Shown: positions 8,343-50,718 of the stretch, piece after piece
Layout: every line of letters starts with the position of its first letter
Position numbering within the stretch: position 1 is the stretch's first letter
Origin: an uncultured Chloroflexia bacterium
GTDB lineage: Bacteria; Chloroflexota; Limnocylindria; Limnocylindrales; CSP1-4
Reading direction: 5' to 3'
NCBI GenBank assembly: GCA_963707215.1
Contig: CAVPPB010000002.1
Span: 320,001-384,000 of the forward strand
DNA: 64,000 bases
The notes under the pieces: generated by a model
Seen by the model: only the letters and a program-made list of their open reading frames with translations
Databases searched by the model: none
Told to the model about the DNA's origin: nothing
Position numbers and translations under genes: made by a program

Positions 8343-8531
8343 CGACGATCCTCGAGCTGTCGGAGGGTGTCGACCAGCGCCCACGTGGAGGGGCCGCGGC
8401 CGACGGCGTACCTTGAGCCCGTCCGGGACGCGGGGCGGACCCGGCGCATGATAGCCGAACCGGTGGCGGTTTCGTCTACCGAGCAGGTAAGCATTCGATG
8501 GATGCTCCCGTTCCGTGGGACGATTGACGCC

Positions 8532-33420: not shown

Positions 33421-34585
33421 GCCCCCGCCGGCTCCGTCGGCCGAGACGCTCGCCGAACGGATCGCCGCTGCCCGGAGGCTGGCCGAGGCACAGGGGATCT
33501 CGGGCCTGCTCATCGGGGTCGGGGCCGATCTGCGCTACCTGACCGGCTATACCGCCCTGCCCCTGGAGCGACTGACGCTGCTCGTGCTGCCGGTCACCGG
33601 ACCGGTCCGCCTGGTGGTCCCGCGGCTGGAGGCGCTCCCGGCCGGGACCTGCCCGGCCTCCCTGGCAGGACTCGTCCAGGTCGTTCCCTGGGACGAGACC
33701 GACGATCCGTTCGCCGTCGTGGCCGACCTGGTCAGGCCATCGACCGACCACCCGGCCGAGCTGATCGACCGATTCGCGGTGTCCGATCGGCTCCCGGCGG
33801 CGTTCCTGCTCCGCCTCCAGGATGCGCTCCCGTCGGCACGATTCGGCCTGGCCTCGGCCGTGCTGGGCGAGCTGCGGATCCGGAAGGATCCCTCCGAGGT
33901 GGACCTACTTCGGACCGCCGCAGAGGCAGCTGATCGGGTGGTCCTGGCGATCGCCGCAGGCCCGCTCCTCGGGCGCACCGAGGCCGATGTCGCCCGGGAG
34001 GTCCGGGACCGGCTCATCGCCGAGGGCCACGACAGCGCCGAGTTCGCCATCGTCGCCTCGGGCCCGAACTCGGCCTCGCCCCACCATCACGCCGGTGACC
34101 GGGTCATCGGCCCCGGCGACCCGATCGTCCTCGACATCGGTGGTCCGCTCGGTGGCTACGGCTCCGACATCACCCGGACCCTGTGGGTGACCGGGGGCGA
34201 CCCCGCGCATGGGCCGGACGACGAGTTCGTGGCCATCCACGCCCTGGTCCGAGAGGCCCAGGCTGAAGCCACCCGAGCCGTCCGGCCGGGTGTCGCGGCC
34301 GAGGGGATCGACGGTGTCGCCCGGGCGGTCATCGACCGCGGCGGCTACGGCGACCGGTTCATCCACCGCGTCGGCCATGGCATCGGCCTGGAGGGCCACG
34401 AGGAGCCGTACCTGGTCGACGGGAACGGGACGCTCCTCGAGCCAGGCATGGCCTTCTCGATCGAGCCCGGGATCTACCTCGAGGGCCGCTATGGCTGCCG
34501 CCTCGAGGACATCGTCGTCTGCGGTGATACCGGCCCGATCATCCTCAACCGGGCTCCGCTCGACCTGCTCGTCGTCGACGGCTGA
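33413..34585 (+). CDS. Xaa-Pro aminopeptidase (M24)
   Basis: DLRYLTGY, SDITRT, HRVGHGIGLEGHE and EPGIY...RLED. Confidence 0.93.
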   Translation: MAEPPPAPSAETLAERIAAARRLAEAQGISGLLIGVGADLRYLTGYTALPLERLTLLVLPVTGPVRLVVPRLEALPAGTCPASLAGLVQVVPWDETDDPFAVVADLVRPSTDHPAELIDRFAVSDRLPAAFLLRLQDALPSARFGLASAVLGELRIRKDPSEVDLLRTAAEAADRVVLAIAAGPLLGRTEADVAREVRDRLIAEGHDSAEFAIVASGPNSASPHHHAGDRVIGPGDPIVLDIGGPLGGYGSDITRTLWVTGGDPAHGPDDEFVAIHALVREAQAEATRAVRPGVAAEGIDGVARAVIDRGGYGDRFIHRVGHGIGLEGHEEPYLVDGNGTLLEPGMAFSIEPGIYLEGRYGCRLEDIVVCGDTGPIILNRAPLDLLVVDG

Positions 34586-34657
34586 CGTCACCCGGTCGGC
34601 CGCCGGCCCACCGGAACGCCTGGGGCGATGCCGGCAGACCCGGGGTATCATCGGCCG

Positions 34658-34780
34658 ATGGGCAGCCAGGAGGTTCGCCCGCCTGACGGCCGAGAGATGA
34701 CCTTGATCGAACCGCGACGCCCCGGCGTCGCCCCATTCGCCGCCATGCTCGTCGTCGCCCCTCGGGGGAGGGTCCGATGA
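34658..34780 (+). CDS. Possible leaderless 40-aa uORF coupled to the 34777 gene
   Basis: TATCAT-N6-ATG; stop overlaps the next start (ATGA). Confidence 0.3.
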   Translation: MGSQEVRPPDGREMTLIEPRRPGVAPFAAMLVVAPRGRVR

Positions 34781-35403
34781 GTCGACGCGGCCACCGGGGA
34801 CGTCCCGGACGCCGCTCCTCGGGCCCCGCCAGCAGCGCCGTCCGGGGCCCGGCGCCCGCGCCCGGCCCCAGTGCCCGACCCGAGGACGGCGAGGCGACCT
34901 CGGCGTCGGCTGCGCCCGCCCCAGGCCAGCGTGCGCTGCCTCCATCGGCCGCCCGTGCCGACGGTCCGGCCCGGGTTCCTGCGGACGGGCCGACCGGCAA
35001 CGGCAACCTCCCGCACCTGGAGCGACCCGAGCCGGCGGCCGACCGGGCGCTCGGCACGGCCGTGACCCCTCGACGCGAGCCTGACGGCGAACCCGGCGCC
35101 AACGGTGCGGATGGCCAGGGCCGGAGCGGCGCCACACTCGCCCAGCTCCGCAGGTTCATCAAGAGCCGCCCCTACATGCCGATGCACGAGCTTCGACGCC
35201 GCTTCAGCCTGGACTGCGAGGCTGACGAAGTGCACTCGATCGACATCGGCGGCCGGTACCTCTACGTCGGCCTTCCCGAGCGCGAGGCGGGCTTCGTCGG
35301 CGAGCTGATCCGGACCGGCGAGGTGGGCTACGAGCTCCTGTTGGACCCGACCTGCCCGCTCGTCATCGGCGTCTACGCGATGCGCCCCGTGGTGCGGTCC
35401 TGA
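34777..35403 (+). CDS. Hypothetical protein with a disordered N-terminus and a compact C-terminal domain
   Basis: RBS GGGGAGGG. C-terminal ~90 aa (LRRFIKSRPYMPMHELRRRF...GVYAMRP) look globular. Confidence 0.65.
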   Translation: MSRRGHRGRPGRRSSGPASSAVRGPAPAPGPSARPEDGEATSASAAPAPGQRALPPSAARADGPARVPADGPTGNGNLPHLERPEPAADRALGTAVTPRREPDGEPGANGADGQGRSGATLAQLRRFIKSRPYMPMHELRRRFSLDCEADEVHSIDIGGRYLYVGLPEREAGFVGELIRTGEVGYELLLDPTCPLVIGVYAMRPVVRS

Positions 35404-35416
35404 CCGCACCCTTCGC

Positions 35417-35432
35417 TGTCGGCTGGACGACA
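35417..35432. promoter_or_regulatory. Crp/Fnr (CooA-type) palindrome TGTCG-N6-CGACA
   Basis: TGTCG GCTGGA CGACA, 46 bp from the candidate -10 CAAGAT (35478) of the DVEGH peptide gene. Confidence 0.7.
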
Positions 35433-35530
35433 GGAGGGGCGTCGTCAGGGCGGCTGGACGCAGTGGGCGGCTGCCGCCAAGATGGAGCGGACGCGACGAG
35501 CGACCCGTCGCCGCAGTGGGGTTCGAGACC

Positions 35531-35731
35531 ATGACGAAGCAGCAGAAGCCGATCGAACCGGACGACGCGGCCCCCCGCGTCGCCGAGGACGAGGACGACG
35601 TCGAAGGGCACAACATGATGCCGCTCGACCCGTCGTCTGCTCGCCATCTGGCGGGCGCGCGCGAGCGCGAGATCCGCAGCGACCTCGCCCGGCGCCAGCG
35701 CGAGCATGAGGCTCGACCGCACAAGCGCTGA
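35531..35731 (+). CDS. Small DVEGH-motif peptide (66 aa)
   Basis: MTKQQKPIEPDDAAPRVAEDEDDVEGHNMMPLD...; followed by a terminator hairpin. Confidence 0.75.
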   Translation: MTKQQKPIEPDDAAPRVAEDEDDVEGHNMMPLDPSSARHLAGAREREIRSDLARRQREHEARPHKR

Positions 35732-35750
35732 CCGACCGCCGGCCACGACG

Positions 35751-35779
35751 AGCGGCGTCCCCCGGGGCGCCGCTTCTTC
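35751..35779 (+). terminator. Intrinsic terminator-like hairpin
   Basis: Stem AGCGGCGTCC/GGGCGCCGCT followed by TCTTC. Confidence 0.6.
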
Positions 35780-36047
35780 GTGTGCGTCACGCCCGACATG
35801 AGCTTGGTCCCGCCGGACCGGTCCGGGTCCCCGGCACGACTCGGGACCCGTTCGGTCGTGGCGCTCCGTCGGAGTCGCCTGGGCGACAGGACGGAGGGCG
35901 CCGGCGCGACGGCTCGGCGGCCGGCCCGTCGACAGCCCAGACGTCGTCCAGGGGATCGCCCCGGTGGGACGACCGGGGCACCATGAGGGCATCGATTGAA
36001 CGGACCCGAGCAGCACCAGCCGCGAGGGTCAGGAAGGGGACCGACCG

Positions 36048-36272
36048 ATGCTCGACACGAACAGCCGCTACATCGTCGCCAGCCGGACGATCGACGACCG
36101 CCTCGCCGAGGTCCGTCGAGCTCACGTCCTTCGCGAGGCCCGCGCCGGCGAGGACCAGCTCAAGGTCTCGACGCGGGTCCAGCGGGGGCCATCGCTTCTC
36201 GATCGCCTCGTCGCGGCGGTCGGCGCCCTTGGCGCCGGCGACCGGACCGCTCGCCCGGCAGGCGCTCGCTAG
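36048..36272 (+). CDS. Small hypothetical protein (74 aa)
   Basis: RBS AGGAAGGGG; MLDTNSRYIVASRTIDDRLAEVRRAHVLREAR... Confidence 0.6.
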   Translation: MLDTNSRYIVASRTIDDRLAEVRRAHVLREARAGEDQLKVSTRVQRGPSLLDRLVAAVGALGAGDRTARPAGAR

Positions 36273-36402
36273 GATCTCGCCGTCCTCGATCGTTCCCCTC
36301 CCGCCCGGAGTGCCGGGTTGTCACTCCCGGACCGGCCCGCGTAGCATGACTCGCGGGCCGGTCCGTTCGTTTGCCTCGGGCCCGGCGGCAGGAGAGGTTG
36401 GC

Positions 36403-37104
36403 ATGTCGGAGGACGACGGCTTCGCGCTGGAGGCGCTCCGCCGGTGCGCGCTCTTCGCCCAGGCCGACGAGGCGACGCTCCGTTCCTGCGCAGCCCAGCT
36501 GCGGACGAGACGCTTCCGCCGCGGCGAGACCATCTTCCACCAGGGCGATCCGGGAGACTCGCTGTTCATCATCCAGGACGGCTCGGTCAAGATCGTCCTC
36601 CCGTCACCCGAGGGCGAGGAGGCAGCCATCATCGCGACCCTGGGTCGCGGCGACTTCTTCGGTGAGCTGGCGCTCCTCGATGGGGCCTACCGCTCGGCCA
36701 CGGCCGTCGCGGTCGAGGCGTCCGAGACGCTGGTGCTGCGGCGAGAGCCGTTCGCCGCCCTCATCGACAGTGACCCCGGCCTGCGCCACGCGCTCCTGGC
36801 TGGTCTCGCAGCCGAACTGCGGCGCCTGACCGGTCACGTCGAGGAGCTCCACTTCCTGGACCTGCCAGGCCGGCTCGCGAGCCGGCTCGTCCGGATGGCC
36901 CAGGAACAGGACCCGGCTGCCAGCGGCGAGGTCGTGCTCGCCTGGCCGTTCACCCAGTCGGAGCTGGCCGCCATGATCGGGGGGACGCGGCAGACCGTGA
37001 ACCGGCTGCTCGCCGACCTGGTCGCCCAGGACCTCATCCGGTTCGAGCCCGACCGGCTGGTCATCACGGACCTCGAGCGCCTCTCCCGGGCGGCCGAGCG
37101 TTGA
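36403..37104 (+). CDS. Crp/Fnr family transcriptional regulator
   Basis: IFHQGD, FFGELALLDGAYRSATA cNMP motif and HTH TQSELAAMIGGTRQTVNR. Confidence 0.95.
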   Translation: MSEDDGFALEALRRCALFAQADEATLRSCAAQLRTRRFRRGETIFHQGDPGDSLFIIQDGSVKIVLPSPEGEEAAIIATLGRGDFFGELALLDGAYRSATAVAVEASETLVLRREPFAALIDSDPGLRHALLAGLAAELRRLTGHVEELHFLDLPGRLASRLVRMAQEQDPAASGEVVLAWPFTQSELAAMIGGTRQTVNRLLADLVAQDLIRFEPDRLVITDLERLSRAAER

Positions 37105-37132
37105 ACGCCGGTCGCGGGATCCGGCGCGGCCG

Positions 37133-37939
37133 ATGACGAGCCAGGGCCCGCCAGAAGCCTCCGACCTCGAGCGCGCCCTCGAGGCACTCCGGGCGGTGGC
37201 CCTCAGGGCCGAGGCTGCCCGGCGGCTCGAGCTCGGGAGCGGCGAGGCCGTCCTGCGGTCGGTCGTGGAGGCGGCCGTCTCCCTCTTCGACGCCGAGGCC
37301 GCGTCGATCGCGCTCTACGACCCGAGCGCGGATCGGCTGGTGTTCCTGGTCGCCGCCGGCGACCAGGGCCAGGGCGTCGTTGGCCTGTCGATCGGGCCCG
37401 ATCAGGGTCTCGTCGGCTACGTGTTCCAGACCGGTCAGCCGCTGGCCCTGTCGGATGTCCAGCGGGACCCCAGATTCGGGCGCTCCTTCGCCGAGAAGAC
37501 GGCCTACATCCCCCGGTCGATCGTCGCGGTGCCGCTCCTTGACGAGCAGGGCACCGTCGGGGTCCTCGAGGTCCTCGACAAGCGCGACGCGACGGCCTTC
37601 AGCCTGCGCGACATCGAGCTCACCTCGGTCTTCGCCCGCCAGGCGGCCGTCGCCATCCGCTCATCGCGGGTGGAGCGTGAGTCTGCCCTCCTCCTGGAGG
37701 AGGTGCTCCGGGCGACCCTCGGCGACCAGGTCGACGACCGGACCGTCGATGTCCTGGTGGCCGCGGCCGTCGATGATCTCGCCCGCGACGACACGGGAGC
37801 CCTCTGGGCGCTCGTCGAGCAGGTCGCCCGGGTCCGCCGGGCCGATCCGGATCAGCTCGCCCTCGTCACGGACCTGCTCGCCGTGCTGGCCGATCACGCC
37901 GGGCGCGGCCGAGCCGGTCGCCGGGCCCGTCGCGCCTGA
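37133..37939 (+). CDS. Stand-alone GAF domain protein
   Basis: AEAASIALYD...GLVGYVFQTG...DPRF...SIVAVPL...GVLEVLDK...FS..D. Confidence 0.88.
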   Translation: MTSQGPPEASDLERALEALRAVALRAEAARRLELGSGEAVLRSVVEAAVSLFDAEAASIALYDPSADRLVFLVAAGDQGQGVVGLSIGPDQGLVGYVFQTGQPLALSDVQRDPRFGRSFAEKTAYIPRSIVAVPLLDEQGTVGVLEVLDKRDATAFSLRDIELTSVFARQAAVAIRSSRVERESALLLEEVLRATLGDQVDDRTVDVLVAAAVDDLARDDTGALWALVEQVARVRRADPDQLALVTDLLAVLADHAGRGRAGRRARRA

Positions 37940-37945
37940 GCCGCG

Positions 37946-38783
37946 ATGACCGACGAGGCGCTCCTGCCCGCCTGGAGCGAGCCGTTCGCCGGCGAGCGAC
38001 GGACCAGGCTGAGCCACCTGCCGCCATTCGGACGGCTCGGGCGCGACTGGGCCTGGGGAGGGTCCGACGGCAGCGGCTGCACGGTCGCGATCATCGACTC
38101 GGGGATCGAGCCCGATCACCCCGACGTCGGCGGTCGGTTGCTCCGGAGCGTCGTCGTCGAGCTCGACGCGGAGGGCGAGCCGGTCGTCCGCGACGACCCC
38201 GAGGCTCGCGACGTCGTGGGACACGGCACGGCCTGCGCCGGGATCGTCCATGCGCTTGCCCCGGGGGCGGACATCCTGTCCATCCGCGTGCTCGGCCCCG
38301 ACAACCGCGGCAAGGGCGCGGTCTTCGCCGCCGGCCTGGACTGGGCGATCGAGGCCGGTGCCAGCGTCGTCAACCTGAGCCTGTCGTCGAAGAGCGAGGC
38401 CCTGTTCGGGGTCTTCCACGACCTCGCCGATCGGGCCTACTTTGCGAACACTCTGCTGGTCTCGGCCGCCAACAACTACCCGGGTGCGTCGTACCCGTCG
38501 CTCTTCGCCGCGGTGGTCTCGGTCGCCGCCCACGATCTCGCCGATCCGGCCGTCTACCTCTACAACCCGGATCCGCCCGTCGAGTTCGGAGCCCACGGCG
38601 TCGACGTCGAGGTCGCCTGGCGGGGCGGTACGCCGGATGGTCGCCACGGGCAACAGCTTCGCGGCCCCGCACATCGCCGGGTACGCGGCGCTGATCCGTT
38701 CCAAGCACCCGGAGGCGTCCCCGTTCGAGGTGAAGGCGATCCTCGCGGCGACCGCCGACAACGCCCGCGCCCCGGTCGGCTGA
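37946..38783 (+). CDS. S8 (subtilisin) serine peptidase with no signal peptide, frameshifted near 38630
   Basis: IIDSG and HGTACAG in one frame; GNSFAAPH in the shifted frame. Confidence 0.88.
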
Positions 38784-38937
38784 TCAGCACCTGACCGGTC
38801 GGCCGAGGCGGACCCGGGACACGCGTCGCCGCCCGCCGGATCCGACGCTGGGCCGGGGGCGGGCGGCGGTGCTGAGGAACGGGAGCCGGGTCGTGGGAGC
38901 GAGGCCCGGCGGGACCCGTCCGATCAGGTGGTCGGTC

Positions 38938-39423
38938 TCACTCCCCGCTGTTCCGGGCAGTCCGGAAGCCGTGGCCCTCGACGTCGTCGTCCTCGGTGGC
39001 CTTCGGCACTGCGCCCTCGCGCGGGATCCCCGCCTCGCGCGGCACCCCTGCCTCACGGGGCAATCCGGCCTCGCGGGGCTGGCCGAAGCCGTGGCCCTCG
39101 ACGTCGTCTTCGGTCGGGACGGCGCCCTCGCGCGGGATGCCCGCCTCGCGCGGGATGCCCGCCTCGCGCGGGATGCCCGCCTCGCGCGGCACCCCTGCCT
39201 CACGGGGCAATCCGGCCTCGCGGGGCTGGCCGAAGCCGTGGCCCTCGACGTCCTCGTCACCGGTGGCCCGGGGGACGGCGCCTTCGCGCGGGATCCCCGC
39301 CTCGCGCGGCACCCCGGCCTCACGGGGCAATCCGGCCTCGCGGGGCTGGCCGAAGCCGTGGCCCTCGACGTCCTCGTCGTCGGACTCCCGCGTACGCATG
39401 AAGCCCTCGTTCTCGTTGACCAT
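38938..39423 (-). CDS. Multi-cassette DVEGH/PREAG repeat protein (161 aa)
   Basis: RBS GGAGG. Four DVEGHGF motifs separate blocks of 4, 6 and 4 PRE(AG/GA)(L/V/I) hexapeptides. Confidence 0.8.
   Translation of the reverse strand: MVNENEGFMRTRESDDEDVEGHGFGQPREAGLPREAGVPREAGIPREGAVPRATGDEDVEGHGFGQPREAGLPREAGVPREAGIPREAGIPREAGIPREGAVPTEDDVEGHGFGQPREAGLPREAGVPREAGIPREGAVPKATEDDDVEGHGFRTARNSGE
38965..39375. repeat. Nested tandem repeat: 18-bp units inside three ~110-140-bp cassettes
   Basis: Recurring GAAGCCGTGGCCCTCGACGTC (4x) and CCCGCCTCGCGCGG-type units. Confidence 0.9.
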
Positions 39424-39529
39424 GTCGTTCCTCCGCTGGGAGCCGGTCGGCGGGCCGATCGCCCGCGGCTACCAGGGCAGACTACCGTGCGTGTCGAGAC
39501 TCGGCGTAGCGGCGTGGTGACCGCTCCGC

Positions 39530-39545
39530 TGTCGCCGAGCCGACA
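39530..39545. promoter_or_regulatory. Crp/Fnr (CooA-type) palindrome TGTCG-N6-CGACA
   Basis: TGTCG CCGAGC CGACA, 46 bp from the minus-strand -10 TAGTCT (39484-39479). Confidence 0.7.
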
Positions 39546-39565
39546 CCGCAGGCGACGGCACCGAC

Positions 39566-41233
39566 CTAGGGACGGCGGACGCCCGGTCCCCGATACAACT
39601 CCATGAGGCGGACCGACAGGCCAGGTCCGGCACCCACGAGCGCGAGGAAGTCGGAGCCGTCGAGGACGAGGAGTCGGCCCTCGGACAGGGCGGTCACGGT
39701 CGCGGTCCGGGGCGTCTCGCGGAGCAGGCCGAGCTCGCCGAAGACTCGGTCCGGGCCGAGCTCCCGGAGTCGCACCGGCTGCCCGTCGGCGTCCGCCTGG
39801 TCCACGGCGAACCGGCCATCCTCGATGACGTAGAAGCGGTCGGCCGGCTCGCCCTCCCGCACGACGACCTGGCCGGCCGCGACCGTCAGGGGCTCGAGGC
39901 GGGCGACGGCCGCCTCCATGGCCGCCGGGGGCACGCCTGCGAAGAGCGGAAGGCCGGCGACCCGCCGCAGCGTCGCCGACGGCCCATCCGGGGCCATACT
40001 CAGGTCAGGGCCGACGAGCGCGACGGCGACGACCGCGGCGACCACGACCGCCGCACCGGTCGCAGCGAGGACCGGCAGCGGCCCGAGGCTGTCGGCCAGC
40101 ACCGGGACCACCAGCGAGCCCGCGGCGTACGCCAGCGTGGAGACGGTCAGGATCCCGCCGAGGGCCCGTCCGCGGATGGCATCCGGGACGAGCCGTTGGA
40201 AGACGGTCGTCCCGACGACCTCGACGATCAGGCTGCCGGTCGCCGTCGCGGCCATCGCCACGAGGGCGAGCGCGACGATGTCGGCCGCCCCGAGTACGGC
40301 GAGCCCGATGCCCAGCAGCACCGCCCCACCGAGGAGCGGCCCGGCGAGCGACGGACGGAGCACGAGTGCGCCGCTGCCGACCGCGCCGATGAGCCCGCCC
40401 ACCCCGATCGCCGCATTGAGGTAGCCGGTCACCTCCTCGCCGGCCCCGAGCTGGTCGCTCGCCAGCAGGACCGTCAGGACGCCCAGCCCGCCGAACGCGA
40501 ACCCGCCCACGACGTCGAGCGTGCCCAGCCCGATCAAGGGGCGCAGGACGGGCCGGAGCAGCGAGGCAGCGGTCTCGGACGGGGCATCGTTCTTGGCTGG
40601 GGCGTCGCCACCGGGCGCGGGCGTCCCGGCGTCGTCGCGGCTGACCGTGCCCTTCGATGACGGCAGCGTCCAGAGGACGATCGCGACGATCCCGAACGTG
40701 ATCGCGTTGAGGATGAACGCCAGTCCCAGGTCGGCGACCGCCAGCAGCAGCCCGGCCAGGCCCGGTCCGACGATGAAGGCCAGGTTGTCGAGCCCGGCCC
40801 AGGCGCTGTTGGCCGGCCCGAGCTCGCGCTCGTCGCGGACCAGGGTCGGCAGGTAGGACCCGATGGCCGGCCCGAAGAACGCCGAGAAGCAGGTCGCCAC
40901 GATGGCCACGAGGACGATCCCGACGAGGGGACCGTCTGTGAGGACCAGCCAGGCCAGGACCACCATGCAGAGGCCCCGCGCGAGGTCGGTCGTGAAGAGC
41001 ACGAGCCGGCGGTCGAAGCGGTCGGCGGCCAGCCCGGCCGGTAGCGAGAGGACCACGTAGGGCAGCACCCGGGCGGCCCCGACGAGACCGAGAAGGAAGG
41101 CGTCGTTGCTCTCGCGGTAGACGACGACGAGCAGGGCGACGAGGTAGAGCCAGTCGCCGATCGACGAGACGAACTCGCCGGCCAGGAGCCGTGTCACCGG
41201 TCGGTTCGACAGCAGCGCGCGGTAGGTCGCCAT
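39566..41233 (-). CDS. MFS transporter fused to a C-terminal cyclic nucleotide-binding domain
   Basis: GLAADRFDRR motif A, about 12 TMs, then VVREGE...FGELGLLRETPRTATV. Confidence 0.9.
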   Translation of the reverse strand: MATYRALLSNRPVTRLLAGEFVSSIGDWLYLVALLVVVYRESNDAFLLGLVGAARVLPYVVLSLPAGLAADRFDRRLVLFTTDLARGLCMVVLAWLVLTDGPLVGIVLVAIVATCFSAFFGPAIGSYLPTLVRDERELGPANSAWAGLDNLAFIVGPGLAGLLLAVADLGLAFILNAITFGIVAIVLWTLPSSKGTVSRDDAGTPAPGGDAPAKNDAPSETAASLLRPVLRPLIGLGTLDVVGGFAFGGLGVLTVLLASDQLGAGEEVTGYLNAAIGVGGLIGAVGSGALVLRPSLAGPLLGGAVLLGIGLAVLGAADIVALALVAMAATATGSLIVEVVGTTVFQRLVPDAIRGRALGGILTVSTLAYAAGSLVVPVLADSLGPLPVLAATGAAVVVAAVVAVALVGPDLSMAPDGPSATLRRVAGLPLFAGVPPAAMEAAVARLEPLTVAAGQVVVREGEPADRFYVIEDGRFAVDQADADGQPVRLRELGPDRVFGELGLLRETPRTATVTALSEGRLLVLDGSDFLALVGAGPGLSVRLMELYRGPGVRRP

Positions 41234-41433
41234 CGCGCCCATCGCTACGGCGCCCACGTCCGCGTGCTCGACCCCTCCGCCATCGGGGGAGTGTACGGCT
41301 CGTCCCGCCGCTCGCGCCGGTCGTCGGGGTGCGGACAGGACCATCGAAGGGTGGTCTGCGCTCCGGGCGGCGGGCAGGCTAGCGAGGTCGTCGGCGCGAC
41401 CGCGTCTGGGTCAAGGAAAGCGGGAGGCTCCCC

Positions 41434-44050
41434 ATCAACGTTCGCCGAGCGCTGCTCGCAGCGCTGCTCCTCGTCGTCGTGTCCACGGGAGGGACCTCGG
41501 CCGCCGAGCCGGTCCCGTCACCCGCAGCATCCAGCCCACCCGTCGAACCGAGCGTGTCCCCGCTCCCGCCCGACCCTGTCGTCGCCGCTCCCGAGGTCGA
41601 GCAAGTCCCGGCAGCCGCCGGACCCGTCGGCGCGCCCGACGTCGCAGCCGAGCCACTCTCGGCCAGGGGCCGGTACATCGTCCTGCTTCGCGACGGCTCG
41701 ACCTCCGCGCTGGCGAGCTCGCTCGGTCGTCGCTGGGGGTTCCAGCCCGATCGCGTGTTCAGCCGGGCGGTCCGGGGCTTCTCGGCGACGCTGCCGGACG
41801 CGGTCCGCGACCGCCTCGCCCGCGACCCGGACGTCGCAGCGGTGATCCCCGACGAGGTCATCGAGCTCGCCTGGGTGCGCCCGACCGGGATCCGCAGGGT
41901 CAACGCCCCGAGCTCGCCGCTCGCCGACATCGACGCCATCGACGACGCCCGGGTCGATGCCGACATCGCGATCGTGGATACCGGGATCGATCGGACCCAC
42001 CCTGACCTCGACGTCGTCGGCGGCATCAACTGCTCGACGAGCGATCCGAACGCCTGGCGTGACGTGCACGGCCACGGGACCCACGTCGCCGGCACGGCCG
42101 CGGCCATCGACAAGTCGAGCGGGGTCGTCGGCGTCGCCCCCGGCGCCCGGCTGTGGGCGGTCAAGATCCTCAACGACCAGGGCGACGGCCTGCTGTCCTG
42201 GTACGTCTGCGGGCTCGACTGGATCGCCGCCCAGCGCGACCCGTCCGACCCTGACCGGCCGCTCTTCGAAGCGGTCAACATGAGCGTCACCAAATCGGGG
42301 AGCGACGACCAGGCCTGCGGGGACCGCAACGGCGACATCCTCCACCAGGCCATCTGCCGGCTCGTCGGCAGCGGGGTCACCGTCGTCGCGGCGGCCGCCA
42401 ACGACAGCAAGGACGCCGCACTGCGCGTGCCGGCCTCGTACGACGAGGTCATCACGGTCTCGGCGCTGGCCGACATGGACGGGCTCCCCGGCGGGAAGGG
42501 GCCCCAGCTCTGCGGCTCGTACGACGCCGACGACACGTTCGCCGACTTCTCGAACTACGGCGCCGACGTCGACATCATCGCGCCCGGCAAGTGCATCTGG
42601 TCGACCCTCCGGGGGAACCGCTACGGCTACTCGTCGGGGACATCGATGGCGGCACCGCACGTCACCGGCGCCGTCGCCCTGTACAAGGCGTCCCGACCGG
42701 AGGCCACTCCGGCCGAGATCAAGGAGGCCCTGCGGTTCCTGGGGACCTCGGATTGGAAGACCTGGACGGATCCGGATCCCTGGCACGAGCCGCTCCTCGA
42801 CGTGTCACGGCTCGGCCCCCTGGGATCGTTCTCGATGGCTGTCCTGCCCGAGTCCTCCGGCACCGGCGGTGATGACAGCGCCGAGACGACGGTCACCGCC
42901 ACGGTCGCCCTCGTCCGATCGACCACCTTCTTCGAGCCGGTGTCCCTGGCGGCCGAGACGCCCGACGGCATCACCGCGACATTCGACAAGCCGCGCCTCA
43001 TGGGCTTCGGGGTCACCGGGACGACCATGACCCTGACCGCCGCTCCCGGCATCGACCCCGCCGAGATCCCGGTGACGATCCGGGCGACCTACAAGGACAT
43101 CGTCCGGACCACGACCCTGACCCTCGACGTCGAGCCAGCCGCGGTCCGCCTCGCCGGGGCCGACCGCTACGCGACCGCCGCGGCGATCAGCGCGGCCTCC
43201 TTCGGCCCGGGGGTCGCCGTCGCCTACGTGGCCACCGGGGCGAACTTCCCCGACGCCCTCGCCGGCAGCGCCGCCGCCGGCAGCGCCGGGGCCCCGGTCC
43301 TGCTCGTCACGAGGGACACCATCCCGACCGCCACCGCGACCGAGCTCGGCCGCCTCAAGCCGGGTCGGATCGTCGTCCTCGGCGGCGCCTCCGTCGTGAC
43401 CGACGCGGTCAAGGCGGCCCTCGCGCGGTACACCGCCGGCTCGGTCAGCCGCCTCGCCGGGGCCGACCGCTACGCGACCGCCGCGGCGATCAGCGCGGCC
43501 TCCTTCGGCCCGGGGGTCGCCGTCGCCTACGTGGCCACCGGGGCGAACTTCCCCGACGCCCTCGCCGGCAGCGCCGCCGCCGGCAGCGCCGGGGCCCCGG
43601 TCCTGCTCGTCACGAGGGACACCATCCCGACCGCCACCGCGACCGAGCTCGGCCGCCTCAAGCCCGCTCGGATCGTCGTCCTCGGCGGCGCCTCCGTCGT
43701 GACCGACGCGGTCAAGGCGGCCCTCGCGCGGTACACCGCCGGCTCGGTCAGCCGCCTCGCCGGGGCCGACCGCTACGCGACCGCCGCGGCGATCAGCGCG
43801 GCCTCCTTCGGCCCGGGGGTCGCCGTCGCCTACGTGGCCACCGGGGCGAACTTCCCCGACGCCCTCGCCGGCAGCGCCGCCGCCGGCAGCGCCGGGGCCC
43901 CGGTCCTGCTCGTCACGAGGGACACCATCCCGACCGCCACCGCGACCGAGCTCGGCCGCCTCAAGCCCGCTCGGATCGTCGTCCTCGGCGGCGACCGGCG
44001 TCGTGACCGACGCGGTCAAGGCGGCCCTCGCGCGGTACACCAGGCCGTAG
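41434..44050 (+). CDS. Secreted S8 peptidase with an I9 propeptide and 3 CW_binding_2 repeats (probable ATC start; 3' indel near 43995)
   Basis: IVDTG, HGHGTHVAG and SGTSMAAPHV. Signal peptide NVRRALLAALLLVVV follows GGGAGG. Confidence 0.88.
43147..44041 (+). repeat. Three near-identical 303-bp tandem repeats encoding CW_binding_2
   Basis: Units start at 43147, 43450 and 43753 and are almost base-identical. Confidence 0.92.
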
Positions 44051-44065
44051 GCCTGGCTGGACCCC

Positions 44066-44719
44066 TCAGCCGCCCTCCCCGGGCATCGCCAGGGCGGCAG
44101 TCGGCAGGACCGTGCCCTCGAGCGAGAGCAGCTCTCGCTTGAGCTCGAGGAGCTCCTCGCGGGTCCCGAACCAGGACCCGCCGTAGCCACCGAGCGTCCC
44201 ATCGCCGGCGATGACCCGGTGGCAGGGCACGATCAGGCCGATCGGGTTCCGGCCGACGGCCCCGCCGGTCGCCCGGGCGGCCCCGTGTGCACCGATCGCC
44301 GTCGCGACCCGTCCATAGCTGGTCACGCGACCCCACGGGACGCTCCGGACGGCCTCGAGCACCCGGCGGTCCCAGGCGGATAGCCCCCGCAGGTCGATGG
44401 GCAACGACAGCCTCTCGGGCTCCCCTGCCCAGAAGCGGTCCAGGTGTCGCGCGAGCCGGTCGATCAGGGCTCGTCGGGCCGCTCCGGCACGACGGCCTGC
44501 GATCGGATCACGGTGCGTCCGCCGCACCAGGTGAGATGCGAAGGCATCGTCGGTCGATCGGAGCTCGAGCGCCACGACGGCCTGCGTGGTGACGGCCAAC
44601 CGCACGGGGCCCAGGGGACCGTCGAGGACCGCGATCGCGGTCGTCGCCGCCCCGGCGGGCGCTTCCTGCGCACGGTCGACCAGCGCGGCCGTCGGGGGCT
44701 CGGTCTCGTCTCCCGGCAT
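44066..44719 (-). CDS. ogt: Methylated-DNA-protein-cysteine methyltransferase
   Basis: [16 protein letters not shown] and LL..EG motifs. Confidence 0.9.
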
Positions 44720-44754
44720 GTCGCAAGTCTTGCCGTTCAGGACGGCCGACTGCT

Positions 44755-44771
44755 ATACTCGGGGGGAGTAT
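44755..44771. promoter_or_regulatory. CsoR/RcnR-type operator overlapping the copA -10 and RBS
   Basis: ATACT-C-GGGGGG-AGTAT, an inverted repeat flanking a G-tract. Confidence 0.65.
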
Positions 44772-44773
44772 CG

Positions 44774-47497
44774 ATGGACATCACCACCGCGTCCCCGACC
44801 CCGCCAGCCGGCAGCGCACCGCTGGAAGTCCAGCTGCCCGTGGCCGGGATGACCTGCGCCTCGTGCGTCAACCGCATCGAGCGGTTCCTCAACAAGACCC
44901 CGGGGGTCGAGGAGGCGACGGTCAACCTCGCCACCGAGATGGCGACCATCCGGTACCTGCCGAACCTCGCGGGCCGCAGCGACCTCGTCGGCGCGATCGA
45001 GGCGGCTGGCTACGAGGTCAAGCCGTCGGCCCTCGTGGAGCCGGCCGCGGACGACGGGGCATCCGCCGCCGACGCGCTCGAGGCGGCCCAGGCGGCCGAG
45101 GAGGTCGAACGGGCGCGCGAGCTGCGCCTGATGCTGACCCAGTCGATCGTCGCCGTCGCCGTCGCCCTGGTCGCCATGGTCCTCATGTTCTGGCCGCAGA
45201 CGGTCGTCCCGATGGAGGAGCTCAACAAGCTCATCCTCTGGCCCGCCACGATCGTCCAGTTCTGGGCCGGCGGCCGTTTCTACCGGGCGGCCTGGCGAGC
45301 GCTCCGTCACGGCGGAGCCACGATGGACACCCTGGTCGTAGCCGGGACCAGCGCCGCCTGGGTCTACTCGGTCTTCGTCACCATGTGGCCCGAGGTCATC
45401 CACGCGGCGGGCCTGCACCCCGAGACCTACTTCGAGTCCTCGGCGATCATCATCGGCCTCGTCCTGCTGGGTCGCTGGCTCGAGCTGCGCGCCCGAGGCC
45501 AGACGACCGGCGCGATCCGACGCCTGATGGGTCTCCAGGCGACGACCGCCCGGCTCGTCCGCGGCGACGAAGAGGTCGACGTCCCACTCGCCCAGGTCGT
45601 GACCGGCGACCTGCTGCGGGTCCGCCCCGGCGACAAGGTCCCGGTGGACGGGGTGCTCGTCGAGGGCGGGTCGGCCGTCGACGAGTCGATGCTCACGGGC
45701 GAGGCCATCCCGGTGTCCAAGGCCATCGGCGACGAGGTCATCGGGGCGACCATCAACACGACCGGGTCGTTCGTCATGCGGGCGACCCGGGTCGGTCGCG
45801 AGACCGCCCTCGCCCGGATCGTCGAGATGGTCCAGCGTGCGCAGGGCTCCAAGGCCCCCATCCAGCGCCTCGCAGATCGGATCTCGGCCTGGTTCGTCCC
45901 GTTCGTCCTCATCGTCGGCGCCATCACCTTCGCCATCTGGTTCCTGGGTGGGCCGGAGCCCCGCCTGACCCTGGCGCTCACCGCCTTCATCGCGGTCGTC
46001 GTCATCGCCTGTCCGTGTGCCATGGGCCTCGCCACGCCCACCGCGATCATGGTCGGGACCGGCAAGGGGGCCGAGGCCGGCGTCCTGGTCCGTGGGGGCG
46101 AGGCGCTCGAGATCGCGCACAAGGTCGACGCCGTCCTGTTCGACAAGACCGGGACCCTGACCCTGGGCCGCCCGGCCGTGGCCGGGGTCGTCCCGGCCGA
46201 TGGCTGGTCGGCGGGCGAGATCCTGGACCTCGCCGCGTCGGCCGAGAAGGGCAGCGAGCACCCGCTGGCGGAAGCGATCGTCGCCAGAGCGCAGCAGGAT
46301 GAGCTCGGCTTCCGGGCCGTCGACGGGTTCGAGGCCGTTGCCGGTCACGGGGTGGTGGCGACGGTCGACGGCCGGCGCGTCCTGGTCGGCAACGCCCGGC
46401 TGCTTGCCGAGCACGCGGTCGCGATCGAGCGGCTGGAGGATGTCGCGGCGGCCGAGGCCGCGAACGGGCGCACCCCGGTCTTCGTCGCCGTCGACGGCCA
46501 GCCGGCCGGGGTCGTCACGATCGCCGATCCGGTCAAGGCCGAGTCCGCGCAGGCGATCCGGCAGCTCGCCGGCATGGCCGTCGACGCCTGGATGATCACC
46601 GGCGACCGGCGGACGACGGCCGAGGCGGTCGCCCGCCAGGTCGGCATCCCCTCGGACCGGGTGCTCGCGGAGGTCCTGCCCGGCGACAAGGCCGCAGCGG
46701 TCGAGCGTCTCCAGGCCGAGGGCCGGACGGTCGCGATGGTCGGTGACGGGATCAACGACGCGCCCGCGCTCGCGCAGGCCGACCTCGGCATCGCCATCGG
46801 CACCGGGGCGGACGTCGCGATCGAGGCGTCGGATATCACGCTCGTCGGCGGCGATCCCCGTGGGGTCGTCTCGGGCCTGGTCCTCTCCCGGCGGACGATG
46901 CGGGTGATCCGCCAGAACCTCTTCTGGGCGTTCGCCTACAACGTCCTGCTCATCCCGGTGGCGATGGGCGCCCTGTACCCGACCTTCGGGATCACCCTCG
47001 CGCCGGCGATGGCGGCCGGAGCGATGGCCCTCTCGTCGGTGTCGGTGGTCACGAACTCGCTCCGGCTGCGCTCGGTCCGCATCCGCCCGGACGAGGTCCG
47101 CGCGGAGGGGCGGGGCCTGGGCGCGCGGATCGCGGACGCATCCTTCCTGGCGGTCATCGCCCTCCTCGCCGGCGGGCTGGTGGCCGGGGTCATCGCTGCC
47201 GACCGGGCCGTCGCGGCCGGGTCGACCCAGGTCGACCTGGTGGCCCGGGACGTCGCCTTCTCGACCGACGAGATCCGGGTCCGGGCCGGCGAGCTGTTCA
47301 CCGTGACGCTGGTCAACGAGGACCCGGTCCTCCATGACTGGATGGTCGAGGGTGTTGCCAACGTCGAGGTCATCGCCAGGCCCGGCGCCACGGCGAGCGA
47401 CCGGTTCGTCATCGACCAGCCCGGGACCTACGAGTTCATCTGCTCGTACGAGGGCCACGCCGAGGCCGGCATGGTCGGGATGCTCATCGTCGAGTAG
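44774..47497 (+). CDS. copA: Cu(I)-exporting P1B-1 ATPase with a C-terminal cupredoxin domain
   Basis: GMTCASC, TGE, CPC, DKTGT, GDGIND, YN and MALSS. Tail HDW...[11 protein letters not shown]. Confidence 0.93.
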
Positions 47498-47543
47498 GCC
47501 CGACCGGGACGGCTCGCGGGCCAGCCGCTGCAGCGGACATGAA

Positions 47544-47571
47544 GAAGCGGGCGCCCCCCGGCGCCCGCTTC
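47544..47571. terminator. Terminator hairpin between convergent genes
   Basis: GAAGCGGGCGCC-CCCC-GGCGCCCGCTTC, a perfect 12-bp stem. Confidence 0.75.
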
Positions 47572-47586
47572 GTTGGCTGTGTGGCG

Positions 47587-48300
47587 CTACTGGGCCCGAG
47601 GCTCCCCGGGGCGCCCGACCATGTCGTCGGCGGCGTCCTTCGGAGCCAGCGGCCCCGCCGGCCCGCCATCTCGGTCGCGGACGGCGGGGTTGGCCGAGTC
47701 CGGGGCCTGCACGGCCGTCCGGCTGACCGCCTCGTCCGGGGTGGCATCGCGGACCATCGGATCGACCCAGGCCGGAGCCGGCGGTGTCTTCGCCAGGTCG
47801 CCGGCCCGGATCTCCGCGGCCAAGCCCGGCGCCACGGCGGGGGCGGGGATCGCCCGCGACCCCGCGAGGTCTCCGCCCGCGATCTCGGCGGCAAGGCCGG
47901 GTGCCATGTCAGGGACCGGGATGGACGCGGCCTGCGTCTGGCTACCGGCGGTCGGGGCTGTCAGATCAGAGACCAGCATCGAGGTCGTCGCTGCCCCAAC
48001 AACGATGACACCGGCGATCCCCGCCGCCAGGAGCTTGCGCTGCAGGTCGCGGGCCGCCTCGGCGTTCGGCAGCCGCAGCGAGAGGGCGTGGCCCTCGACG
48101 TCGTCCTCATCGAACAGTCGCAGGGTGACGGTCGTGGACAGGCCGTGGCCCTCGACGTCGGCGCTCTCGTCTGCCGCGATCCGCATCTTGTTGCCGGCAT
48201 AACCGGTCGCGAGGAGATCACGGAGCTGCCCGCTGATCGCCCCCTCGATCGCCCCTTCGACCTCTGTCCCGTCCGCGAGCTTCAGTCGCAGCGCGCTCAT
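47587..48300 (-). CDS. DVEGH-motif single-TM protein
   Basis: SADVEGHGL and EDDVEGHAL, hydrophobic LLAAGIAGVIVVGAA, and two APGLAAEIxxGDLA repeats. SD GAGGTGG. Confidence 0.7.
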   Translation of the reverse strand: MSALRLKLADGTEVEGAIEGAISGQLRDLLATGYAGNKMRIAADESADVEGHGLSTTVTLRLFDEDDVEGHALSLRLPNAEAARDLQRKLLAAGIAGVIVVGAATTSMLVSDLTAPTAGSQTQAASIPVPDMAPGLAAEIAGGDLAGSRAIPAPAVAPGLAAEIRAGDLAKTPPAPAWVDPMVRDATPDEAVSRTAVQAPDSANPAVRDRDGGPAGPLAPKDAADDMVGRPGEPRAQ

Positions 48301-48396
48301 CTCCAGCCACCTCATGGTCGGGTCGCCTGTCGTCCCGTGCCCCAGCACTCTAGGCGCGACGCAGGCCTACGACCAGTCCTCCAGCGACATGGCGCC

Positions 48397-48412
48397 TGTC
48401 GTCTGGCTGACA
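48397..48412. promoter_or_regulatory. Crp/Fnr (CooA-type) palindrome TGTCG-N6-TGACA
   Basis: TGTCG TCTGGC TGACA, 45 bp from the minus-strand -10 TAGAGT (48352-48347). Confidence 0.7.
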
Positions 48413-48497
48413 CCTCGACCCGCGACGCGCCCGGGTCGGCGGGCGGGCCGGTGCCGATCGCCCATCCCGCGTCCAGCCGGCGCGCTAGTCTCCGCCC

Positions 48498-49439
48498 ATG
48501 ACCTTCTCCCTGGTCGCTCGCGATCCGGCCACCGGCGACCTCGGCGTGGCGGTCGCGTCGCGCTTCCTCGCGGTCGGCTCGGTCGTGCCCCACGCCCGGG
48601 CCGGCACCGGCGCGGTCGCCACCCAGGCCCTGGCCAACGTCGCCTACGGGCCGGACGGTCTGGCGCTGCTGGCCGACGGCATCGGCGCGACCGACGTCGT
48701 CGCCCGCCTCACGACGCTGGACCAGCATCGCGATCACCGCCAGGTGGGCGTGGTCGACCGCGATGGCGGCGCCGCCTCGTTCACCGGGTCCGCCTGCTCG
48801 GGCTGGGCCGGCGGACGGACCGGCCCGGGCGCCGCGGCCCAGGGCAACATCCTGGCCGGGCCGGAGGTCGCGGAGGCCCTCGTCGACGCCTACGTGGGCG
48901 CCTCGGGTGCGTTCGCCGACCGCCTGCTGGCCGGCTTGCTGGCGGCCGATCGGGGCGGCGGCGACCGCCGTGGTCGCCAATCCGCGGCCCTGCTCGTCGT
49001 CCGCGCGGGTGGTGGCTACATGGGGGGCGACGATCGATGGCTCGACCTGCGGGTCGACGATCACCCGGACCCGGTCGTCGAGCTGATCCGCCTGCGCGGT
49101 CTTCATCGCCTGCTCTGGGAGCCGGTCGACGAGGCGGACCTGGTCCCGCTCGACGTCGCGCTGGCGACGGAGCTGCGCGGGCTCCTAGAGGACGTCAGGG
49201 GCGAGGCCCGGACGAGGACGGAAGTCTACGAGGCGCCCCTCCCCGCCGAGTTGGAGGCGCTCTTCCCGTCGGGTGCGGCCATCGCACCGCGGCCGTACCC
49301 GGCTGGCTGGGACGATGCCTGGCAGGCCAGGCTCATCGCGTGGATGGGGATGGAGAACCTCGAGGGCCGGGTTGTGGCGCCGGGCTGGATCGACCGGGCG
49401 ACGCTCGAGCACCTGCGGGGGGCCGTCGGGACCGCCTGA
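48498..49439 (+). CDS. DUF1028 (Ntn-hydrolase-like) protein
   Basis: MTFSLVARD, AVATQA, QGNILAG, GGDRRGRQSAAL and DLRVDDH. Confidence 0.9.
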   Translation: MTFSLVARDPATGDLGVAVASRFLAVGSVVPHARAGTGAVATQALANVAYGPDGLALLADGIGATDVVARLTTLDQHRDHRQVGVVDRDGGAASFTGSACSGWAGGRTGPGAAAQGNILAGPEVAEALVDAYVGASGAFADRLLAGLLAADRGGGDRRGRQSAALLVVRAGGGYMGGDDRWLDLRVDDHPDPVVELIRLRGLHRLLWEPVDEADLVPLDVALATELRGLLEDVRGEARTRTEVYEAPLPAELEALFPSGAAIAPRPYPAGWDDAWQARLIAWMGMENLEGRVVAPGWIDRATLEHLRGAVGTA

Positions 49440-49446
49440 CGAGCGT

Positions 49447-50718
49447 CTAGTCCTGGTAGCGACGGAGGACGGCGACGGCGTTCTGGCCGCCGAAGCCGAA
49501 CCCATTGACCATGACCGTGTCGACCCTCGCCTCGCGGCCCACGAGCGGGACGTAGTCGAGGTCGCACTCGGGCAGGTCGGGGTTCTCCAGGTTCGCTGTC
49601 GGGCTTATGAACTGGTCGCGGATGCCACCGAGCGCGGCCAGCCCGCTGGCGATCCCGGCCGCGCCGACGAGGTGGCCGACCATCGACTTCGGCGAGCTGA
49701 TGGCGCGCCCGGCGGCGGCCGAACCGAAGGCCGTCTTGATGGCTCGCGTCTCGGTGACGTCGTTGAGCGGCGTCGAGGTGCCGTGGGCGACGATCCAGTC
49801 GATCTCATCGGGCGCCACGCCCGCGTCTCGCAAGGCCGCCTGCATCGAAGCGGCGGCGAAGCGACCGGTCGGTTCGGGCGCGCTGATGTGGAAGGCATCG
49901 GTCGTGAGGCCGCCACCGATGACCTCAGCGATGGGGGTGGCCCCGCGCTCGCGGGCGTGGGCCAGCAATTCGACGACGACCACGCCACCGCCCTCGCCGA
50001 TGACGAAGCCGTCGCGGTCCCGGTCGAACGGCCGAGAGGCGTGCTCCGGGTCGTCGTTCCGCTTCGAGAGGGCGCCCATGTTCGACAGGGCAGCCACGCC
50101 CATCGGCAGCACCGGCGCTTCGGAACCGCCGGTCAGGACGACGTCGGCGGCGCCGGTCTGGATGAGTCGCAGGGCGTCCTGGAAGGCGAGCACGGACGTA
50201 GCGCAGGCCGCGGTCTGGGCCATGACCGGTCCGTGGAGGTCGTACTTCATGGCCAGCATGCAACCGGCCATCGAGCCGGACAGGGCCGGGATGGCGAACG
50301 CCGACACGAAGCGCGCGCCCTTCTGGTCGAAGGCGTGGGTCCCGTCGATGACCTGCTCGAGGCCACCGCCGCCGGTGTTGATGACCACGCCGACGCGGTT
50401 GCGCTGCTCGGGCGTCATCGCCTCGAAGTCGAGTCCCGCAGACGCCAGGGCTTCGGCGCCGGCGGCCATCGCGAAGTGGATGAAGCGGCTCATCCGACGG
50501 GCCATCTTGGGGTCCATGCCGGTGGCCGGGTCGAAGTCCCTGACCTCGGCGGCGATGCGAACCTCCATCCCGTCGGTCGGGAAGCTCTCGATGAGGCGGG
50601 TGCCCGTGACGCCGGCCCGCAGGTTCGACCAGTAGGTCTCGAAGTCGTTGCCGATCGGCATGACCGCACCCATGCCGGTGATCACGGCACGGCGGTCGGG
50701 GTCCTGGCTTGGCGGCAC
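49447..50718 (-). CDS. fabF: Beta-ketoacyl-ACP synthase II
   Basis: AACAT, AHGTST, KSMVGH and NGFGFGGQN. Confidence 0.92.
   Translation of the reverse strand: MPPSQDPDRRAVITGMGAVMPIGNDFETYWSNLRAGVTGTRLIESFPTDGMEVRIAAEVRDFDPATGMDPKMARRMSRFIHFAMAAGAEALASAGLDFEAMTPEQRNRVGVVINTGGGGLEQVIDGTHAFDQKGARFVSAFAIPALSGSMAGCMLAMKYDLHGPVMAQTAACATSVLAFQDALRLIQTGAADVVLTGGSEAPVLPMGVAALSNMGALSKRNDDPEHASRPFDRDRDGFVIGEGGGVVVVELLAHARERGATPIAEVIGGGLTTDAFHISAPEPTGRFAAASMQAALRDAGVAPDEIDWIVAHGTSTPLNDVTETRAIKTAFGSAAAGRAISSPKSMVGHLVGAAGIASGLAALGGIRDQFISPTANLENPDLPECDLDYVPLVGREARVDTVMVNGFGFGGQNAVAVLRRYQD

Follow-up and report, generated by a model that had tools for sequence, protein, structure and literature searches.

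A candidate cyclic-nucleotide-controlled regulon of DVEGH-tagged proteins linked to a small intracellular subtilase in Limnocylindria

Introduction

Why would three genes that otherwise look unrelated encode the same short tag, each behind the same DNA palindrome and all in the neighborhood of one regulator and one protease? The question is raised by a locus within a 64-kb stretch of DNA (G000:C2:320001-384000, hereafter the window) from a 3.26-Mb genome with 72% G+C in 5 contigs. Three genes of this locus, here called A, B and C, encode acidic runs that end in the residues DVEGH (the tag), and close to them lie crp, coding for a Crp/Fnr-type regulator, a gene for a GAF-domain protein and a gene for a peptidase of family S8 (a subtilase). 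The organism is placed in Limnocylindria (Chloroflexota), and the bacteria related to it are uncultured and come from soil and sediment. Limnocylindria are abundant, nearly uncultured Chloroflexota of soil, sediment and freshwater, and to our knowledge nothing is known of their signaling. An earlier note on this DNA had proposed that the DVEGH genes form an undescribed regulon under a CooA-like Crp protein. Here we report that tag, palindrome, regulator and protease recur together in related genomes, and we weigh what the tag may be for.

Results

The open reading frame (ORF) listing and a six-frame scan of the whole 3.26-Mb genome both place the acidic-DVEGH motif once in A, four times in B and twice in C, confirming the three dissimilar genes and the copy numbers given in the earlier note. 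Fourteen further matches to D[VTIL]EGH in the genome have no preceding acidic run and were read as off-frame noise. Gene A (35531-35731, plus strand) encodes 66 amino acids (aa), with a single EDEDDVEGH followed by a conserved basic helical tail. Gene B (38938-39423, minus strand) encodes a 161-aa repeat protein with four DVEGH copies, PREAG spacers and a C-terminal NSGE, and neither A nor B showed a signal sequence on inspection. Gene C (47587-48315 or 47587-48300, minus strand) encodes a predicted cytoplasmic N-domain bearing both of its tags, one membrane helix and a Pro/Ala-rich repeat region. Its reading frame extends over 47587-48348 (minus strand), and because the GTG at 48348 overlaps the -10-like box described below, the start was assigned to the ATG at 48315 or 48300. 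AlphaFold models the N-domain of C (residues 1-95) with predicted local distance difference test (pLDDT) values of 70-87, and in this model both tags lie in loops leading into beta strands. A fold search with this domain gave a best Z of 4.4 (PH/PTB-like), which does not rise above background, and this candidate was set aside.

The palindrome TGTCRNNNNNNYGACA (TGTCR-N6-YGACA) occurs exactly three times in the window, at 35417, 39530 and 48397, where 0.23 would be expected, and none of 100 shuffles reached three. Each copy stands upstream of a DVEGH gene: operator 1 (35417-35432, plus strand, TGTCGGCTGGACGACA) before A, operator 2 (39530-39545, TGTCGGCTCGGCGACA on the minus strand) before B and operator 3 (48397-48412, TGTCAGCCAGACGACA on the minus strand) before C. 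Candidate -10-like hexamers start 45 nt after operator 1 (CAAGAT, 35478-35483, plus strand), 45 nt after operator 2 (TAGTCT, 39479-39484, minus strand) and 44 nt after operator 3 (TAGAGT, 48347-48352, minus strand), so that the near-identical distance from palindrome (TGTCG-N6-YGACA) to -10 box that had been remarked on before is borne out. Four window sites match TGTCG-N6-CGACA with at most one mismatch, every one within this locus. Genome-wide, TGTCR-N6-YGACA occurs seven times and four of these copies precede DVEGH-type genes; the fourth, at G000:C1:399247-399600, has the same layout and a small downstream ORF that reads as an A-like paralog whose tag is DTEGN. The placing of DVEGH genes behind a shared operator is thus confirmed, at a frequency well above what chance would give.

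When species-representative genomes were scanned by pattern and by tblastn, 34 related loci totaling 575 kb were obtained. These loci contain 46 palindromes, whereas a background of 3 unlinked sites in 3.26 Mb would predict approximately 0.5, and 36 of the 46 lie 13-135 nt upstream of the script-chosen start of a DVEGH ORF. The layout around operator 1, including the position of its CAAGAT hexamer, is conserved: 38 of the 46 palindromes are followed by GTC at +7, a -35-like box at about +21 and a -10-like box at about +45, and the box promoters of family f3 (one of the families introduced below) have an identical layout. Exact palindromes that lack the usual promoter layout were also seen at L003:8297, L027:8223, L031:7371/7822 and L032:8255, between an M24 gene and the gene for a 208-aa protein.

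Among the related loci, the number of tags in A-type genes ranges from 1 to 13 or more, with the conserved tail after them, B-type genes lie approximately 3 kb away on the opposite strand, and C-type genes are also preceded by the box. The spacers between tags are near-identical inside one protein and unrelated between species. Across 193 distinct instances, the extended consensus reads basic residues at -8 to -5, Ala, Thr/Asp, Glu/Asp, Asp and then D-V-E-G-H, and the His is followed by a small and then a hydrophobic residue. The codons of the tag differ synonymously between genomes, and selection therefore acts on the peptide. On a contig from a related strain (run X3), 271 nt within gene B (38957-39229) are skipped, which suggests that the number of B repeats may differ between close strains. 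Two single-tag B-type proteins (L010:9489-10136 and L021:12953-13552) have at their C-terminus an additional helical domain of about 120 aa, which the other B proteins lack.

None of the three proteins matched a Pfam or NCBIfam family at E 0.01 or 0.1. A full-text search for the motif, judged by titles and abstract openings, returned no description of the DVEGH motif, of the protein families or of the gene module, and the earlier view that these proteins are not a described family holds. A text search of the Limnocylindria genomics paper (Nat Commun 2026, PMC13212565) likewise returned nothing relevant to the module in the text it covered. A profile of the A tail retrieved 284 clusters at E 0.001 among 1.84 billion protein representatives, and the relatives of protein A all come from metagenome-assembled Chloroflexota labeled Candidatus Limnocylindrales, Limnocylindria or 'uncultured Chloroflexia'. 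A profile of the C N-domain retrieved 366 proteins, all named ones being from Limnocylindria/Chloroflexota except one labeled Dormibacteraeota; the idea that C-type proteins of the form 'DTEGHA...FP...F..RL' are common in Actinomycetota was not borne out by these named matches. An ESM Atlas search gave only unnamed Chloroflexota clusters, with scores of 0.80-0.88.

crp lies beside A in 33 of the 34 loci, and crp, the GAF gene and the S8 gene together lie beside A in 31; the set is incomplete there in L006, L019 (at a contig end) and L034. Six loci retain this core alone, the M24, 208-aa protein, MFS, MGMT and CopA genes being gone. In all six f3 loci the order is crp, box, DVEGH repeat gene, GAF and S8 on a single strand, with the MFS (major facilitator superfamily) gene ahead in at least three, and the GAF and protease genes there are probably part of the box-dependent transcript. 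At L006:4298-4462, an A-like DVEGH paralog that has no crp-GAF-S8 neighbors lies between two large genes of cyclase-AAA-TPR type.

To follow the tag beyond these loci, we used 300 sampled genomes of the class, belonging to families f1 (n=91), f2 (n=12), f3 (n=103), f4 (n=92) and f83 (n=2), in which an S8 ortholog was scored at E <=1e-40 and the tag by a strict DNA pattern for DDVEGH. A hidden Markov model search with alignment A3 had matched 7 of 401 genomes of the phylum, and because it scored only 16 candidates per genome the DNA pattern was used for distribution instead. The S8 ortholog was present in 52/91 f1, 0/12 f2, 77/103 f3, 0/92 f4 and 0/2 f83 genomes, and the pattern in 41/91, 0/12, 45/103, 17/92 and 1/2, respectively, with a single occurrence overall of the reversed control pattern. 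When cross-tabulated by hand, the pattern occurred in 33 of 52 S8-positive vs 8 of 39 S8-negative f1 genomes, and in 44 of 77 S8-positive vs 1 of 26 S8-negative f3 genomes. The f3 tallies include four unpublished genomes (G604, G651, G478 and G442), each positive for both S8 and pattern; without them, S8 is found in 73/99, the pattern in 41/99 and both in 40.

Furthermore, 12 loci from 11 of the 27 S8-negative, pattern-positive genomes were inspected, and all proved to be Arg-rich off-frame readings with no palindrome nearby; eight of these loci had a third-codon-position G+C content (GC3) of 0.56-0.75. Conversely, inspection of 8 of the 19 S8-positive, pattern-negative f1 genomes revealed variant tags (DAEGH, QDVEGH, DDTEGH or DTEGQ) beside S8 in 7. 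Among the inspected loci, only genomes that encode this S8 ortholog yielded what appear to be genuine DVEGH genes. The tag and S8 co-occur in both f1 and f3, and the neighborhood and operator conservation on which the earlier note had staked its proposal is seen in the relatives. Taken together, the comparative data lend good support to the proposed DVEGH regulon and to its tie to crp-GAF-S8.

The regulator gene crp (36403-37104, plus strand) encodes a protein with the two halves of the Crp/Fnr family, an N-terminal beta-barrel that binds cyclic nucleoside monophosphates (cNMP_binding, PF00027, 1.3e-27; cNMP hereafter) and a C-terminal Crp-type helix-turn-helix (HTH_Crp_2, PF13545, 8.1e-17), both above cut-off. 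Its phosphate-binding cassette is intact (FGE...RSA) and, among solved structures, CRPs of mycobacteria and corynebacteria match it best (1e-37), which assigns it to the subgroup of cyclic AMP (cAMP)-CRP. Against the NCBIfam CRP equivalog it scores 94.9 bits, below the cut-off of 266, and it therefore does not count as an equivalog of E. coli CRP. The genome has two Crp-family genes, the second with a different recognition helix and without the cassette. E. coli CRP reads TGTGA with R180, E181 and R185; the recognition helix here (TRQTVNR) has what we take to be a Gln at the Glu position, which would fit a changed fourth base pair. crp itself is preceded by a sigma-70-like promoter (TTGTCA-18-TAGCAT, 36318-36347, plus strand), the sole such match in 35300-39700 (0.0 expected), which is conserved in the closest relative, L001. 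The picture suggested by these sequences is one of crp on its own consensus-like promoter and of target promoters with weak -35 regions that would depend on the box.

The box is the published CooA consensus, TGTCGGCnnGCCGACA, as reported by Rodionov et al. 2004 (PMC545781, including Table 10). With CRP/FNR regulons, and the CooA box in particular, this system shares a 16-bp palindrome, TGTCG half-sites, weak promoters and a regulator of cNMP_binding plus HTH_Crp_2 architecture. It appears to differ from CooA in that the sensor of the Crp is of the cAMP-CRP type and probably not a heme CO sensor, and none of the best 60 of 111 solved-structure matches to Crp is named CooA. The CooA-like label of the earlier note thus suits the DNA box and seems not to suit the protein, given its intact cassette and its mycobacterial CRP relatives.

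The S8 gene (37946-38783, plus strand) encodes a leaderless minimal subtilase (PF00082, 8.6e-20) and is interrupted in the window by a 1-nt frameshift in a G-run (tgg cgg ggc ggt acg) near 38620-38632; this could stem from misassembly, or the gene could be a true pseudogene. A contig from a related strain spans the gene with a single gap. The gene is intact in 29 of the 34 related loci (L001 and 28 others), with a complete Asp-His-Ser triad, the motifs AI(I/V)DSG, GHGT and G(N/T)SxAAP and no signal peptide, and its orthologs are 270-290 aa long with an invariant N-terminal LPAWSEPF segment. In fold and sequence the protein belongs to peptidase family S8 and is closest to subtilisin BPN' (Foldseek 1.5e-15); the model has low confidence at the N-terminus, in the 99-102 loop and in the S1 loop. 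The idea of a PatA/PatG-type protease was not upheld, as the PatA/PatG model TIGR03895 matched with E 0.065 and 12 bits against a cut-off of 421. The best NCBIfam matches, QhpE (NF049966, 81.7 bits, cut-off 165) and mycosin (TIGR03921, 77.4 bits, cut-off 278.75), also fall below their thresholds.

Between crp and S8 lies the gene for the GAF-domain protein (37133-37939, plus strand; PF01590, 2.7e-21), which has a helical C-terminal extension. The solved chains nearest to its GAF domain are those of PDE2A/5/10 and CyaB2, which are of the cNMP type, and it has what is presumably an NKFDE-like stretch; a cyclic nucleotide may be its ligand. The genome encodes 25 class III adenylate/guanylate cyclase domains, many of them in ORFs of about 1200 aa, and none in the window.

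We also observed that tag and protease vary together in one lineage. In three genomes (L036, L039 and L047) the tag reads DTEGQ, and the S8 proteins of these genomes differ from 37 S8 proteins of genomes with the His-type tag at 10 of 118 conserved columns. By HMMER alignment, six of the ten changed columns fall in substrate-binding segments, namely BPN' positions 99, 101, 102, 132 and 154 and a one-residue insertion in the 157-166 loop. A divergent clade with the His-type tag (branch length 0.52) keeps the His-type S1 (154-166) signature, and its 99-104 loop differs only at 100 or at 99-101. A complex prediction of S8 with protein A, run without controls, gave scores of 0.26, 0.34 and 0.25 against a mark of 0.32 and speaks neither for nor against an interaction.

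Several neighboring features complete the locus. A GC-rich terminator-like hairpin (35742-35785, plus strand; -33.1 kcal/mol, z -2.2) directly follows the stop codon of A. A one-mismatch operator (35873-35888, plus strand, AGTCGCCTGGGCGACA), conserved in L001, lies 160 nt upstream of a small ORF (36048-36272, plus strand; 74 aa) that has a good ribosome-binding site and no DVEGH. This ORF is shared with L001 only (one of 46 loci compared), with differences of the synonymous type, and was rejected as a core member for that reason; it is a possible lineage-specific member of the regulon. Rfam matched no family in 33000-50000. The earlier note had placed a transporter gene fused to a cNMP-binding domain next door, which is true of the window, where an EntS/MFS_3-type MFS transporter with a C-terminal cNMP-binding domain is encoded at 39566-41344 (minus strand); it adjoins the module in just 21 of the 34 related loci and in at least 3 of 6 f3 loci, has no operator of its own and is regarded as accessory. 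The 208-aa protein encoded upstream of A (34777-35403) has a conserved C-terminal domain of no known family, and a comparison of that part with solved structures found nothing (best E 0.53). A second subtilase (41479-44142), of secreted type, combines an I9 propeptide with three near-identical CWB2 cell-wall-binding repeats; it was found in only 1 of the 34 loci (L001) and was excluded from the module; another CWB2 protein is encoded at the start of the window (121-1062). A copper P-type ATPase (44777-47497) has a C-terminal cupredoxin domain, and cytochrome oxidase subunit genes at 3488-4621 and 7161-8915 have extra cupredoxin-like domains.

Discussion

What, then, could the tag be for? The reading we favor, and consider somewhat likelier to be right than wrong, is that of a class-specific, cNMP-Crp-controlled regulon whose DVEGH-tagged products would be handled by a GAF-partnered intracellular subtilase, cleavage at the tag being the likeliest form of handling. 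The cAMP-CRP-type regulator encoded in the locus would bind TGTCG-N6-CGACA. The box is centered about 53 nt upstream of the -10-like hexamer and accompanied by a weak -35, a class-I-like position that would suit an activator, and Crp binding would presumably turn on, rather than repress, genes for otherwise unrelated proteins that share an (E/D)DD-V-E-G-H tag. The products would be soluble repeat proteins of the A and B types, with 1 to 13 or more tag copies, and membrane-anchored proteins of the C type, with all tags predicted to face the cytoplasm. The cNMP-type GAF protein and the leaderless minimal subtilase, which are taken always to accompany the tagged genes, would act on the tagged proteins, most likely by cutting at the tag; Val would then occupy P4, Glu P3, Gly P2 and His (or Gln) P1. 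Such cleavage would free the repeat peptides together with A's basic tail and would detach the N-domain of C. As judged from these sequences, cleavage at the tag would be the most economical mechanism, and the joint change of DTEGQ and of the S8 substrate loops is the only positive hint that the tag may be a cleavage site.

Several observations weigh against this reading. The DTEGQ-type S8 proteins form one clade (support 99/95), so that their joint change with the tag counts as a single event and may reflect lineage drift. In the window the S8 gene carries a frameshift, whereas A, B and C remain intact; should this frameshift be genuine, the tagged genes are able to persist in the absence of this protease. 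Genome G447 keeps crp-GAF-S8 and has no DVEGH gene within 7 kb. Furthermore, we infer binding of the box by the Crp of the locus from their adjacency, from the presence of only two Crp paralogs and from the helix rule given above, and the -10 and -35 boxes were chosen by eye.

The tag might instead be a docking motif for the GAF protein, for S8 (as a pseudo-substrate or inhibitor) or for another partner, with the repeat number setting the avidity of a cNMP-controlled complex. The linkage and co-occurrence data apply equally to such a role, the tags of C lie in loops of a folded domain (pLDDT 70-87) as docking motifs often do, and genome G447 has GAF-S8 without tagged genes. We nevertheless think docking unlikely, as the changes that accompany DTEGQ in the S8 substrate loops implicate the protease cleft, and the tag pattern fits what we take to be a subtilase P4-P2' site (Val/Thr/Ala at P4, Glu/Ser at P3, Gly at P2, His at P1, a small residue at P1' and a hydrophobic one at P2').

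If the tag is cleaved, a further question is whether the released pieces leave the cell, and here two related proposals both seem improbable to us. In the first, A and B would be cyanobactin-like multi-core precursors, in the manner of ribosomally synthesized and post-translationally modified peptides (RiPPs), with DVEGH as recognition sequence, the spacers as products and the MFS-cNMP protein as exporter. The repeats are indeed near-identical within each protein and variable between species, with copy numbers of 1 to 13 or more, type A bears a conserved follower-like tail and the MFS protein is of the EntS/MFS_3 type. However, no modifying enzymes are encoded in the locus, S8 does not match the PatA/PatG model, 13 of 34 loci have no MFS gene next to the module, this gene lacks an operator of its own, A and B have no signal sequence on inspection, and type C is a membrane protein and not a precursor. 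In the second, a bacterial analog of prohormone processing, cAMP-Crp would induce the polyproteins, a GAF-gated subtilase would cut after each DVEGH and in C as well, and the cNMP-gated MFS protein would export peptides or the tag as intercellular signals; peptide export is weakly supported. A metal-binding role, in which the Asp/Glu/His tag would let the proteins buffer or chaperone copper or zinc in connection with the copper P-type ATPase, has in its favor the acidic residues and His of the tag and the CopA-type ATPase (HMA and cupredoxin domains) between B and C, with CopA in the fetched flank of 15 of 34 loci, but is hardly credible given the change of His to Gln across a clade and to Asn in the paralog of the window genome, the absence of CopA from the fetched flank of the other 19 loci and of any CopA match in the 6 f3 loci, and its failure to explain the strict Val and Gly and the link to S8-GAF.

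Known systems resemble this one in part. Cyanobactin maturation, in which PatA/PatG act on PatE, likewise sets an S8 gene beside repeated-unit precursors, and the PatA site, G-(L/V)-E-(A/P)-S, resembles DVEGH in its aliphatic P4 and Glu P3. The system described here differs in having no heterocyclase and no DUF domain or macrocyclase insert, in the conservation of the tag, in its predicted cytoplasmic proteins and in control by a cNMP sensor. In yeast alpha-factor/Kex2 and in fungal dikaritins, tandem units with a fixed short site are cut by a kexin-type S8 convertase, and copy number varies between species. The kexin polyproteins thus share with the DVEGH system its tandem units, short fixed site, subtilase partner and species-variable copy number, whereas here the site is acidic-His and not dibasic, the subtilisin is minimal and leaderless, no secretory pathway is involved and the host is bacterial. 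QhpE, mycosin and the intracellular serine proteases of Bacillus resemble S8 in being compact subtilases that lack a signal peptide, and the solved matches of S8 include an intracellular serine protease; S8 differs from QhpE and mycosin in falling below both cut-offs, in its own LPAWSEPF segment and in its constant GAF-protein partner. An anti-phage system of the Pycsar/CBASS kind was considered and rejected, as the PADLOC matches were limited to the generic cNMP-binding domain and a generic subtilase model, with A, B, C and the GAF protein all left unmatched. Described Crp regulons offer no counterpart to the target genes found here.

The DVEGH proteins are undescribed families, and the gene set looks like a new signal-controlled protein-processing system. 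The circuit is compact, with one regulator, one 16-bp box, one five-residue tag, a small protease and a GAF partner. If S8 does not cut the tag, the tag would be a new short linear motif with a partner to seek. If S8 does cut it, Limnocylindria would have a bacterial cyclic-nucleotide-gated system of polyprotein processing, built on a new minimal subtilase that is sequence-specific, recognizes an unusual acidic-His site and might serve as a tag-cleaving tool.

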